The notes: a model not told the origin generated them from the sequence alone. Positions 24,763-36,020 are shown, counted from the first letter of the stretch. The stretch is DNA of 46,921 nt from a bacterium (GCA_029940215.1 JAOZRE010000003.1:1-46921); one strand, 5' to 3'. Program-made: numbers and translations.

Positions 24763-24780
24763 ATCGAGCAAATGTTCGAT
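24763..24780. promoter_or_regulatory. Operator-like palindrome, site 1
   Basis: ATCGAGCAAATGTTCGAT; aligns with the sites at 24819 and 35999. Confidence 0.55.
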
Positions 24781-24818
24781 TTTTATTTTTGCAGGGAAAA
24801 CCCTTCCTGTCAAATAAA

Positions 24819-24836
24819 ATCGAGCAGATGCTCAGT
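24819..24836. promoter_or_regulatory. Operator-like palindrome, site 2
   Basis: ATCGAGCAGATGCTCAGT; a minus-strand TTGACA (24813-24808) lies between sites 1 and 2. Confidence 0.55.
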
Positions 24837-24847
24837 TTTGATAGCTG

Positions 24848-25978
24848 TCAGCTTTCGGGCACACCCTTGACGTAGCATTTGAGGGAGAGCCCCTGTCGGA
24901 CAGCCAGCAGACAGTTGTTGCAGGACACACATCCGGCCTCATTGGTTTTTCCGGAGGCAAACCGCTTTACCAGGTGGGGTTCTCTGATAAAGGGGCGGCA
25001 CATGGAGATCATGTCCGCCTTTCCCTCTTCGATGATATTTGACATCTGCGCCAGTTTTCTGACACCCCCGACCAGGAGCAGGGGGACGTTTCCGATCACA
25101 GGCTTTATTTTCTCAGCCGCTGCAAGGTGGTAGTTGTCCACCGGGGCGAACTCGCCTTCAATACCCTGCTTGCGGCTCATGGCGAGGGGTGAAAAAGAGA
25201 GGGTGCCGCTGCTGAGTTCGATCCCGTCAATCCCGAGGTCAGCCAGCCATTTCGCGTAAATAGCTGCAAGATCCGGGTCTATTCCTGGCTCTGGTGTGAA
25301 GTCATTGGTATTGAGTTTGATCAGCACCGGCATATCAGAGGGAACGTTTTGCTTAATGGCAAGAAATACCTCCTTTACGAATCGGAAACGGTTCTCGTTG
25401 TTGCCGCCCCATTTGTCTTCCCGCTGATTGAAAAATGGAGAGAGAAACTGGCTCCCCAGGTAGCCGTGGGCTGCGTGGATCTGAACACCGTCAGCTCCGG
25501 CATCAGCCGCCCTGCCAGCAGCAGCACCGAATGCTTCGATGATTTCCTGGATTTCCTCCTCTGTCATGGCCCTGGGTTCAATGCCAAAGGTTGGATCAAC
25601 ACCGTTGTTGAAGGGAGCGATCGGTTCCAGACCGGTTACTTCTTTGCGGGTCTGCCGGCCTGCGTGGGCCAGCTGGAAGATGACCTTCCCCTCTTCATCA
25701 TGGATGGCAGAAACCAGCTTTTTAAGTCCACTGATAAAGCTGTCGTTGTAAATGGCTGTTTGTTTGAGCCCCGCCTTACCGGTCGGGTGCACATACATGT
25801 GACCGGGCACTATCAGGCCGATATCCCCTTTGGCTAGTTGCCTGTATCGTTTCAACAGCACCTCGTTCACCATGCCATCACTTTCCAGCATCGATTCATA
25901 TGTTGCAGAGTGTATAAAACGGTTTTTAACGGTCAGGGTCCCGATGTTAAAGGGGTTGAAAAGTTTGGACATAGTCAT
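24848..25978 (-). CDS. NADH:flavin oxidoreductase (OYE family, single domain with C-terminal Cys motif)
   Basis: QLAHAGR, QIHAAHGYL, REDKWGG, CRPFIREP, CVSCNNC. Confidence 0.9.
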   Translation of the reverse strand: MTMSKLFNPFNIGTLTVKNRFIHSATYESMLESDGMVNEVLLKRYRQLAKGDIGLIVPGHMYVHPTGKAGLKQTAIYNDSFISGLKKLVSAIHDEEGKVIFQLAHAGRQTRKEVTGLEPIAPFNNGVDPTFGIEPRAMTEEEIQEIIEAFGAAAGRAADAGADGVQIHAAHGYLGSQFLSPFFNQREDKWGGNNENRFRFVKEVFLAIKQNVPSDMPVLIKLNTNDFTPEPGIDPDLAAIYAKWLADLGIDGIELSSGTLSFSPLAMSRKQGIEGEFAPVDNYHLAAAEKIKPVIGNVPLLLVGGVRKLAQMSNIIEEGKADMISMCRPFIREPHLVKRFASGKTNEAGCVSCNNCLLAVRQGLSLKCYVKGVPES

Positions 25979-26037
25979 TCCATATTAGTGTCTGTTTGAC
26001 GTGTTTAGGTAACAGAGATGAAAAACCTGTAAAAGGC

Positions 26038-33545: not shown

Positions 33546-34352
33546 CTATCCCTTGGGGGCCTCGTGAAACATGGTGGTTCGACCGCCGTCCACCACAATG
33601 TCCTGGCAGGTAATATACGCACCCTCATCACTGGCCAGAAACAGGGCGGTATTGGCTATGTCTTCCGGCAGGCCTGATTTTCCGAGAGGTGTGGCAAACG
33701 CCAGGTTTCGCTTCAGTTTTTCCAGTTTCTTGGCGTTTACCTCATCATCTATTGTATTGGCAACCTCAGAGCCGCCCCAGAAAATGGGTGTGGCCACAGC
33801 TCCCGGTGAGATGGCATTTACTCGGATACCATATTGACCCACCTCAAGTCCTGCGATTTTAGTCAAATGTGTAACACCCGCCTTGGCAGCGCTGTACAGA
33901 TATCCCCCCTGTCCTGAACGAATCGCAGCAATGCTGGAATTGTTGAGAATACAGCCGGAGCCCTGCGACTTCATGGCGATAGTTGCATGTTTGATTCCAA
34001 AGACCACGCTGCCAAGCAGCAGACGCATGGCATAGTCAAAATCATCAGGGGTTACCGTTTCGAGTGTCCCTTCACTGCGACCGCCTGCATTGTTGAAAAG
34101 GCAGTCCAGGCGTCCGAACTGGCTGACTGCCAGGTCGACCAGAGCCTTGATATCGGCTTCATCCATCACATCCGCTCTCTGAAAAACCGCTTTTTCACCC
34201 AACCGTTCTGCGATCTTCCTGCCCTTTTCCTCTGTACGCCCTGCCAGAATCACGCTGGCACCCTCAGCTATAAAAATTTCTGCTGTCACTTCACCAATAC
34301 CACTTGTCGCACCGGTTATCACCGCGACTTTTCCTTCCAACCGTTTTGCCAT
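33546..34352 (-). CDS. Short-chain dehydrogenase/reductase (SDR)
   Basis: TGATSGIG, FNNAG, YSAAK, IRVNAISPG. Confidence 0.93.
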   Translation of the reverse strand: MAKRLEGKVAVITGATSGIGEVTAEIFIAEGASVILAGRTEEKGRKIAERLGEKAVFQRADVMDEADIKALVDLAVSQFGRLDCLFNNAGGRSEGTLETVTPDDFDYAMRLLLGSVVFGIKHATIAMKSQGSGCILNNSSIAAIRSGQGGYLYSAAKAGVTHLTKIAGLEVGQYGIRVNAISPGAVATPIFWGGSEVANTIDDEVNAKKLEKLKRNLAFATPLGKSGLPEDIANTALFLASDEGAYITCQDIVVDGGRTTMFHEAPKG

Positions 34353-34449
34353 CCATCACCTCCCTGTTAGATACTAAAAAATTAAAAAAAGATTTACCAC
34401 GGAGACACAGAGTTCACACCAAATACGGGGAAATCTCGGCTTTTATCTA

Positions 34450-34746
34450 CTAACAGCATCCGCTGCTGTTACCATCATCCGAACAACCGCATTCGGGTTC
34501 ATTACCGGTAACCATGCCATAGATTATGGCTGCTGCGCAGCCCACTCCGGCTGTAACCGTAATGGCCTCAAATTCACAATTGTTCTGGCAGGCACCGCAT
34601 TCAATGCACCGATCGCGATCGGTCATCTCTGCTTTCTTCCCGTTCATCACAAACACGCCATGGGGACAAACCTCAGTGCACCGTTTGCAACCGGTGCACT
34701 TCTCGTCATCATAGGCAAGTGTCACCACATCTTGCAGGTATTTCAT
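34450..34746 (-). CDS. hgcB: Mercury methylation ferredoxin HgcB
   Basis: CTGCKRCTEVCP and CIECGACQNNC; GVGC, CGC and C-terminal CC; ATG 34746 overlaps the hgcA stop (ATGA). Confidence 0.95.
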   Translation of the reverse strand: MKYLQDVVTLAYDDEKCTGCKRCTEVCPHGVFVMNGKKAEMTDRDRCIECGACQNNCEFEAITVTAGVGCAAAIIYGMVTGNEPECGCSDDGNSSGCC

Positions 34747-35864
34747 ATGATTCCCCAAAATTGAAGTTTGTAGCAGACCAGAAGAATTACCGCAAGCAGA
34801 GCCAGTGCGGCGTAGATTTTCAACAGGATTCGCAGCTCCTTTGTCACACCGGACGGGCTGGTAAACGTGCTGCAGCCGGTGAAATTGAATGCCAGGTAAC
34901 CACTCAATGCCGGAAATACCAGGTAGGAGGCCCCCAGCAGATAAATACTCTCAAAAGGGGTGGCATAAGTTCCAGTCAGGGCATGAGCAAGGGCAACTGG
35001 CAGCAGGCCCAGCAAAAAACCCTTCATCGAAAACGACCTGAACGGGATCCATGGCAGCAGAACAGGGGCCAGAGCGGCCCCTGTGAATACCGCTGCCAGG
35101 AAAAGCCCCAGCACGGGCAGCCCTTCTGAAAGTGCCTGCCCGAACAAAATGCCTTCTGGCATCAACCCGAAAAAAACAAAAAGTCCCAGAACAATCATCC
35201 AGGATTTTTTAAGCGTCATGGACAGTTCCATGGGGACCAGTACAGTCCTGGCTTTTATATCAAAGGTAACCCGTCGCATCTCTGGAAGGACTTTCTCTCC
35301 ATTCTCCAGGTACTCCCTGAGATCTCGTGCTTCAATGGGACCGAATTTAACCCTGAATCCTGTTGCTTTTTTAACCTCATGTGATCTGATCCCAGGGGCT
35401 CCCAGCTGAGGAGCAATGACCTTGTGGTGATCGACCACCCTCTCCAGACCCGTCATGCGGATTTGCCGGATAATCTCGTCTGTCCCGAAGGTCCCCTTGC
35501 CGGCGGCACACCAGACATTGATGCCCTTTGTGTCCAGTACCAAAATCCAGGCGTCAATGCCGTACAGTTCCCGTCTCAGAATATCAAAACTTAATTTATA
35601 GTTGGCTGAGAGCAGCACCGGGGATTTTGACGTTGGATTACCGACCGCGAGTAGTCCGGGTTTGACTCTGTAATCCATGCGGTATCGATCGCTGATGCGG
35701 GCCTTGAATTCCCCTCTGCGATCATCGTTGCCCCAGATGGTTGCTGCCTGGTTGATATTGCCGATGGGGGTGCTGACGGTGCCCGTTATCCAGGGCGGTG
35801 GTGGTTCAACGGGACCGGAAGGTAACATATTTAGTGGAATTCCGGTGAAAGATTGATCTGACAT
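34743..35864 (-). CDS. hgcA: Mercury methylation corrinoid protein HgcA
   Basis: Cap-helix motif GINVWCAAGKGTFG; YRVKPGL, ANYKLSFD, PQLGAPG, FGPIEA; C-terminal TM domain with FTGCSTFTSPSGV; hgcB immediately downstream. Confidence 0.97.
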   Translation of the reverse strand: MSDQSFTGIPLNMLPSGPVEPPPPWITGTVSTPIGNINQAATIWGNDDRRGEFKARISDRYRMDYRVKPGLLAVGNPTSKSPVLLSANYKLSFDILRRELYGIDAWILVLDTKGINVWCAAGKGTFGTDEIIRQIRMTGLERVVDHHKVIAPQLGAPGIRSHEVKKATGFRVKFGPIEARDLREYLENGEKVLPEMRRVTFDIKARTVLVPMELSMTLKKSWMIVLGLFVFFGLMPEGILFGQALSEGLPVLGLFLAAVFTGAALAPVLLPWIPFRSFSMKGFLLGLLPVALAHALTGTYATPFESIYLLGASYLVFPALSGYLAFNFTGCSTFTSPSGVTKELRILLKIYAALALLAVILLVCYKLQFWGII

Positions 35865-35994
35865 GCAGGTTACCTGAATAGGATTTGTAAACGTAATTGA
35901 ATCAGTGCACTTTTAAATCCTAACAGGTTTCCTGAATTTTGTAAATTGTCAGGTCAGCCTTTGTATTCATAAAACCCCGGCAGTCAAGGAATGA

Positions 35995-36020
35995 AAAAAT
36001 AGAGCATATGCTCTATTTTT
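35995..36020. promoter_or_regulatory. Perfect 26-bp palindrome (operator site 3) between hgcA and the acyl-CoA dehydrogenase triad
   Basis: AAAAATAGAGCAT|ATGCTCTATTTTT; flanked by outward-facing TTGACT (minus strand, 35987-35982) and TTGACA (36022-36027). Confidence 0.7.

Follow-up and report, generated by a model that had tools for sequence, protein, structure and literature searches.

The stretch of DNA considered here, which we call the window, is 46,921 nucleotides long (GCA_029940215.1 JAOZRE010000003.1:1-46921) and is contig C252 of genome G000, an assembly of 5.04 Mb in 612 contigs with 47.5% GC. It carries hgcA (34743-35864, minus strand) and hgcB (34450-34758, minus strand), and in a profile search of the window proteins both lie above the NCBIfam equivalog cutoffs (NF040863 HgcA_corrinoid, 396.9 bits against a cutoff of 275; NF040864 HgcB_ferredoxin, 121.7 bits against 99). 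Divergent from hgcAB and beginning at 36207 are three tandem acyl-CoA dehydrogenase (ACAD) genes, the acd triad (36207-40068, plus strand; acd1 36207-37397, acd2 37440-38690, acd3 38878-40068; Pfam Acyl-CoA_dh_N/M/1). Between the two groups, in a spacer of 342 bp, lies a perfect 26-bp palindrome, AAAAATAGAGCATATGCTCTATTTTT (site 3, 35995-36020), and two related palindromes, site 2 (24815-24840) and site 1 (24759-24784), lie upstream of a minus-strand gene for a 640-residue Fe-S flavoenzyme of the FadH/BaiCD/OYE type (22730-24652; Oxidored_FMN and Pyr_redox_2); none of the three sites has a strand. The first-pass annotation of this DNA had reported three 18-bp sites, the third as the core of a perfect 26-bp palindrome, beside genes it named as hgcAB, a dehydrogenase triad and a flavin oxidoreductase. 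The strings are found exactly at 24763-24780, 24819-24836 and 35999-36016, the palindrome is as described, and profile matches agree with the gene names. The annotation went further and proposed that the palindrome places hgcAB under an acyl-CoA-responsive regulon. We believe the regulon is real and FadR-like, and we consider it probable that it is run by a TetR-family protein, TetR1, with site 3 serving the acd promoter and hgcAB read from a promoter of its own.

The three sites belong to a family of 26-bp palindromes with the consensus AAAATmGAGCAwaTGyTCkATTTT in G000. The exact core, GAGCA-N2-TGCTC, has just 6 copies in the 5.04-Mb genome, four of them sharing AT-rich flanks, and when one change is allowed in the right half of the core there are more copies, every one with AT-rich arms. 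A symmetrised position weight matrix (PWM) finds nine sites in the genome at 29.9 bits or above; the next best has only 18 bits. When the matrix is built from the six sites outside the window only, site 3 scores 38.6 bits, the maximum for the genome, and the other window sites score 29.3 and 24.5, against maxima of 18.4-20.3 bits in four 5-Mb first-order Markov simulations. The outside sites were first located through the core pattern, so the independent evidence they give is limited to their flanks and gene contexts. The extended pattern with at most three mismatches matches 11 times in G000, 17 times in G001 and 10 times in G002, the latter two being genomes of the same genus, against 0, 1 and 0 matches for the reversed control. 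All nine strong sites are intergenic, between long open reading frames (ORFs). The genome-wide scan that had been suggested as a check comes out in favor of the motif, which is found at gene 5' ends or in divergent regions and far above the simulations.

The genes that follow these sites are those of a regulon for beta-oxidation and acyl-CoA metabolism, with dehydrogenase, electron transfer flavoprotein (ETF), ligase and reductase types. In G000, strong sites stand ahead of the acd triad and of the FadH/OYE-like gene, which has the tandem sites 2 and 1. Others precede the divergent TetR1 and etfBA genes, an NMO/FabK-like gene (tandem), an ADP-forming acyl-CoA synthetase (CoA ligase) with an SDR gene, a pair of APH-kinase and MatE genes, a gene of the FabH-like type (also tandem) and an ORF of 239 aa. 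Sites are kept in both G001 and G002 at the NMO gene, between the APH and MatE genes, at the synthetase/SDR genes, at the 239-aa ORF and between TetR1 and etfBA, and the FadH-like ortholog in G001 (L163) retains its tandem pair at a spacing of 57 bp. A second locus of an APH-type phosphotransferase in the regulon lies at C265:12098-13153, divergent from a MatE gene; the window itself has APH/DUF7064/DUF6285 genes at 29693-30682. At one site, C44:30121-30146 (L004), the adjoining -35 (TTGACG-N18-TAAAAT) faces hypA, a gene for hydrogenase nickel insertion, and points away from the CoA-ligase and SDR genes; in G014 the conserved sites stand directly upstream of the ligase, unlike the -35 direction in G000.

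The operators also hold a fixed relation to promoter elements. Of the nine strong operators, six have a TTGAC(A/G/C) hexamer 1-2 nt from their end. The proposed promoter of the FadH/OYE-like gene (24785-24813, minus strand) reads, in order, site 2, a single t, TTGACA (24813-24808), a 17-nt spacer, (TGc)AAAAAT (24790-24785) and site 1; it has 10 of 12 matches and a TG before the -10. Site 2 thus ends 1 nt from the minus-strand -35 and site 1 follows directly after the -10, over the likely transcription start, which bears out the earlier observation that sites 1 and 2 bracket a minus-strand TTGACA. The same is seen at all tandem promoters (n=3), where the second site lies over the -10/start region and begins at or right after the -10. 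This is the layout of a repressor.

It could be argued that the sites have no regulatory role at all and arose by chance, act as bidirectional terminators or derive from mobile repeats. A terminator scan does report a weak hairpin with a T-run after it at sites 1 and 2, and the genome is rich in dispersed short repeats. However, the scores are far above the simulated null, the copies stand at gene 5' ends or in divergent regions with a fixed close offset to TTGACA, orthologs retain the sites though the flanking DNA diverges, and the hairpin stem is short and AT-rich. We rejected the terminators on the basis of position and conservation, and we give the whole family of such explanations almost no chance of being right.

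The earlier reading saw no regulator gene in the window, and we agree: among the matches listed, from a total of 14 TetR-like matches in G000, none lies on the window's contig. The candidate is encoded elsewhere. TetR1 (C44:43621-44328) has 235 residues, is divergent from etfBA, and has the domains TetR_N (PF00440, E 2e-10) and TetR_C_24 (PF17932). A strong site, C44:44553, sits between TetR1 and etfBA. Two back-to-back -35 boxes adjoin this operator, since c-TTGACA is present with a 1-nt gap at both flanks, and the symmetric double -35 indicates that TetR1 regulates itself. The palindrome adjoins TetR1 or its operon in eight genomes from two genera. In G000, G001 and G002 it stands between TetR1 and etfB, and in five genomes of the sister genus g6 (G007, G014, G016, G017 and G018) it separates etfBA from a divergent operon of an acd1-like gene and TetR1. 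The TetR1 orthologs are 72-74% identical within the genus and 54-61% identical in g6, and the palindrome has stayed with them.

The structure of TetR1 points the same way. Its AlphaFold (AF2) model is all-helical with a predicted local distance difference test (pLDDT) value of 86.4, and Foldseek gives 261 PDB matches of the TetR fold at E <= 1e-3. The top matches include PfmR, B. subtilis FadR with stearoyl-CoA, KstR2, AibR with isovaleryl-CoA and the Sulfolobus FadR (SaFadR) with lauroyl-CoA, so the nearest solved structures are mostly TetRs that respond to CoA thioesters. TetR1 has what is expected of a TetR repressor: a helix-turn-helix (HTH) and a helical ligand domain, a palindrome at promoters, and a regulator gene that adjoins its operator and is kept there in relatives. 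The regulator of this palindrome is very probably a TetR-family protein of the kind that senses CoA thioesters, with TetR1 as the candidate.

In the model we propose, TetR1 would be a repressor acting on AAAATmGAGCAwaTGyTCkATTTT. It would sit on the 26-bp site, probably as a single dimer or as a dimer of dimers, so placed that it adjoins or covers sigma-70 promoter elements, and would probably leave the operator on binding an acyl-CoA-type thioester. There is a precedent in the TetR-type FadR, whose dimer of dimers occupies an operator of about 30 bp until long-chain acyl-CoA releases it (PMC5397183). The FadR proteins (Bacillus YsiA/FadR, B. halodurans, Thermus thermophilus) are like TetR1 in having TetR_N, a palindrome of about 26-30 bp, autoregulation and operators at genes of beta-oxidation, ACADs and ETF among them; TetR1 also resembles acyl-CoA-bound FadR in its fold (PMC5397183). 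The two differ in that structural alignments give only 16-17% identity, the operator sequence is another one, and TetR1 has a 45-residue N-terminal extension. The regulons differ as well, that of TetR1 having ACAD10/11-like dehydrogenases, APH-type kinases, an OYE/FadH-like reductase and a FabH-like gene. Against the FadR equivalog NF053878 TetR1 scores 31.5 bits, below the cutoff of 200, so it is no FadR ortholog. By analogy it would be FadR-like in its working, with an acyl-CoA as its presumed effector.

The best match of TetR1 by both sequence (E 4e-14) and structure is another protein, PfmR (TTHB023 of Thermus thermophilus HB8, PDB 3VPR), with a TM-score of 0.80-0.86 normalised to the target. 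PfmR is a TetR repressor of genes for fatty-acid and phenylacetate metabolism that acts on a palindrome and has two-site and bidirectional promoters (PMC7022988). The identity is just 23-26%, and PfmR has a GC-rich consensus (CTGACCGnTCGGTCAG-like) that bears no relation to AAAATCGAGCAwaTGCTCGATTTT.

The assignment of the palindrome to TetR1 is complicated by a paralog. Just past etfBA lies a second gene of the family, TetR2 (C44:46962-47585, minus strand), whose product is 47% identical to TetR1. A palindrome of a sister type, TCGAACGTTCGCTCG (GArCG-N2-CGyTC; C44:47800-47825), lies about 215 bp upstream of TetR2 in G000. A GAACG-N2-CGTTC-type palindrome is found about 215-240 bp upstream of TetR2 in all five relatives with a match and is weaker in G000 (12.8 bits), and TetR2 and its own palindrome are kept together in G001, G002 and genus g6. 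It is possible to suppose that the regulon palindrome is bound by TetR2, by both paralogs or by some unrelated regulator, in which case the position of TetR1 beside a site would mean control of etfBA and nothing more. The HTH regions of TetR1 and TetR2 are indeed nearly the same, and the two types of palindrome have common arms, AAAATCGA...TCGATTTT. We nevertheless think another binder improbable, because in two genera the GAGCA type is always upstream of TetR1 or its operon and the GAACG type upstream of TetR2, and because the symmetric double -35 at TetR1/etfB points to autoregulation.

We now turn to site 3 itself. For this comparison we used seven HgcA proteins at 75-79% identity from a large protein collection, on contigs from different samples; the resulting set of seven lineages consists of G000 and six further lineages, with HgcA 75-100% identical. 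The order acd <- | -> hgcA hgcB | <- fadB is found in the six further lineages as it is in G000, and the palindrome is present between acd and hgcA in all seven at 34.7-40 bits. We considered the possibility that the contig is a chimera joined at the palindrome and rejected it, since the junction of acd and hgcAB recurs in independent assemblies. As contigs from different samples share this order, the junction is genuine and it is conserved.

On the acd side the operator and the promoter are locked together. The proposed acd promoter (36022-36050, plus strand) begins 1 nt past the operator and consists of TTGACA (36022-36027), a 17-nt spacer and TAACGT (36045-36050). The arrangement of palindrome, one nucleotide, TTGACA, 17 nucleotides and TAnnnT is fixed in position in five lineages (G000, L142, L145/G001, L146 and L148), with the -10 hexamers TAACGT, TAAGTT, TAGGGT, TAACTT and TAACGT. 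The 1-nt spacing between operator and TTGACA also recurs at other sites of the regulon. We propose that site 3 is the TetR1 operator of this promoter, and that the acd triad is its target.

On the hgcA side the picture is different. The DNA next to the palindrome is unrelated between lineages, and the distance from the operator to the hgcA ATG is 130, 144, 149, 274, 321, 471 or 640 bp, the longer spacers holding insertions of dispersed repeats. The earlier note had described outward-facing -35 boxes at site 3, one for the dehydrogenases and one for hgcAB. Both hexamers are there, TTGACA at a 1-nt gap on the acd flank and TTGACT at a 7-nt gap on the other (35982-35987, minus strand), and the acd half of the claim stands. 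The TTGACT box does not stand up as the -35 of hgcA; its best -10 partner is TACAAA, which lacks T6, and the box is seen in G000 alone, not being conserved in L142, L145, L146, L148, L149 or L153. What is conserved is a separate promoter-like block, TTTACA-N17-(TGt)TAGGAT (35917-35945, minus strand), 49 nt from the edge of the palindrome and the sole sigma-70-like match that a promoter scan reports in the upstream region of hgcA in G000. It is kept as TTTaCA-N16/17-TGnTAGGAT/TAAGAT/TAACAT/TATTAA in L149, L148, L146, L142 and L153, and across lineages it stands about 70-190 nt from the operator. In G000 the center of the operator would be at about -97 relative to the likely hgcA start. We believe that hgcAB is most likely read from this promoter (35945-35917), at least about 50 nt from the operator, and direct repression at this distance is improbable.

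A box resembling TTGACA (cTGACA, TTGACA, TTGATA) is also conserved, at 35946-35960 of the window and in the aligned blocks of L142, L149 and L153, where it precedes the proposed hgcA -35 by about 3-5 nt. It is too distant from the -10 for sigma-70 spacing, so it may bind another factor acting on hgcA.

The alternative is a two-way operator: from site 3, TetR1 would repress hgcAB as well, and acyl-CoA would de-repress hgcAB and acd together. This could come about through the TTGACT-N16-TACAAA promoter specific to G000, through distortion of the DNA, or by a dimer of dimers extending across the flank. Some observations favor it. The TetR1/etfB operator does serve two divergent promoters, the TTGACT box in G000 is only 7 nt from the palindrome, genes of the regulon type lie on both sides of hgcAB, and the order of acd, operator and hgcAB is kept in seven lineages. 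What argues against it is the asymmetry of the footprint. There is no conserved -35 on the hgcA flank, the one hexamer available being confined to G000 and having a poor -10; the distance between operator and hgcA varies from 130 to 640 bp with repeat insertions tolerated; and a conserved hgcA promoter stands apart, some 70-190 nt away. The tandem-site promoters of the regulon have a second operator and hgcA does not, all PWM maxima over its promoter being below 0 bits in every lineage. We therefore regard the two-way operator as unlikely. Phylogenetic footprinting, which the first-pass annotation had put forward as a check, shows conservation on the acd side only and so speaks against the link to hgcAB. 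Its broader claim has fared better in part, for there is one regulon, with a TetR regulator and acyl-CoA genes. It is the membership of hgcAB that falls away, with the operator fixed only relative to the acd promoter, a separate block for hgcA, and variable DNA between them.

Relatives in which hgcA stands elsewhere lead to the same conclusion. In L150-L152, where HgcA is 78% identical and hgcA is beside a histidine kinase gene and not acd, the palindrome is absent. The g6 genomes, which have both the TetR1 regulon and hgcA, and G011 have no site within about 4-5 kb of hgcA. Since the palindrome is absent where hgcA has no adjoining acd, the operator follows acd and not hgcA. The L150-L152 lineage has hgcA after a PTA gene and the histidine kinase gene, with an ACAD gene and an AMP-dependent ligase gene downstream, and another inverted repeat, TAGCAT-GGT-ATGCTA, lies upstream of hgcA about 130-150 nt before the ATG (L150:3660-3842, L152:540-724). 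The HgcA loci from genomes of 80 named species, 833 kb in all and no more than 56% identical, have no motif match above 17.4 bits, and they are too distant to be of use for footprinting. An exact-sequence look-up of the G000 HgcA gave no match.

One further case deserves comment. G001 at first seems to be a sister without hgcA that has the same operator, and this would have shown the operator to be ancestral to acd alone. We rejected this, since 3,211 bp at the end of its contig match the metagenome contig L145 with 100% identity, and L145 goes on into hgcAB. The G001 bin falsely seems to lack hgcA because the contig stops within a dispersed repeat, 220 bp short of the gene. These repeats are 100-200 bp long with dozens of copies in G000 (L145:5361-6000 and L142:5530-6000; copies in the window are at ~103-286). 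It is important to realize that this is a caution for any survey of the presence or absence of hgcA in metagenome-assembled genomes.

Downstream of hgcB lies an SDR gene in the same orientation (33546-34352, minus strand; profile search), separated from it by a 97-bp gap without a strong terminator. The gap (34353-34449) is unique in the genome, does not belong to the dispersed element family, and holds just a weak hairpin ahead of a T-run, so hgcA, hgcB and the SDR gene may form a single transcript. The same gene order recurs in L153.

Several points weigh against our interpretation. The conserved order of acd, operator and hgcAB in seven lineages is also compatible with functional coupling, and in G000, L149 and L153 just some 50-60 nt separate the operator from the hgcA -35. 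The matching of palindrome to paralog rests on conserved position because the recognition helices of TetR1 and TetR2 are almost identical, and cross-talk between them is possible. TetR1 scores far below the NCBIfam cutoff for FadR, so the acyl-CoA effector is a presumption from the nearest structures. The promoters are assigned from consensus and footprint in an uncultured lineage, and the binding of TetR1 and the start sites of hgcA and acd are predictions from the sequence. Despite these points we believe that the TetR1 model, with site 3 as the acd operator, is the most probable one, and that direct control of hgcAB by TetR1 is doubtful.

The only experimentally supported transcriptional control of hgcAB is by an ArsR-like protein of Pseudodesulfovibrio mercurii ND132 (bioRxiv 10.1101/2022.10.17.512643; also PMC7438021). 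The gene for that regulator is the immediate upstream neighbor of hgcAB, the two are transcribed together, and the protein responds to arsenic and S-adenosylhomocysteine (SAH) (bioRxiv 10.1101/2022.10.17.512643). The arrangement in G000 is unlike this. No HTH regulator gene lies between acd and hgcA, the upstream neighbor being the divergent acd operon, and the nearby operator is of another family and apparently belongs to acd. An operator of the ND132 kind, overlapping the hgcA promoter and conserved with hgcA, was not found in these lineages, where the distance between the palindrome and the -35 ranges from 49 nt in G000 to over 150 nt. The comparison with divergent control of the tetR/tetA type is also instructive. 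TetR1/etfB resembles it in having a single operator region between back-to-back promoters, but acd/hgcA differs in having an adjoining -35 on one flank only. A literature search gave no report linking a TetR regulator to hgcA.

To our knowledge, almost nothing is known of how hgcAB expression is controlled beyond one Pseudodesulfovibrio model, hence any operator that adjoins hgcA is worth checking. If hgcAB did belong to the TetR1 regulon, the capacity for mercury methylation would track the catabolism of fatty or hydroxy acids, and this would be a second mode of hgcAB control unrelated to the ArsR-like one. The capture of hgcAB by a TetR regulon responsive to acyl-CoA in this uncultured Desulfobacterota clade, with TetR1 modulating it together with the divergent acd operon, seems to us an outside prospect on the present evidence. 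A secondary observation is the stable place of hgcAB within a locus for acyl-CoA catabolism in seven lineages. What is new here is a FadR-like TetR regulon not described before, accompanied by a paralogous regulator and a related motif; it belongs to an uncultured lineage that bears hgcAB. The outcome is a regulator and operator pair that is open to direct testing, and a conserved candidate promoter for hgcA in this clade.

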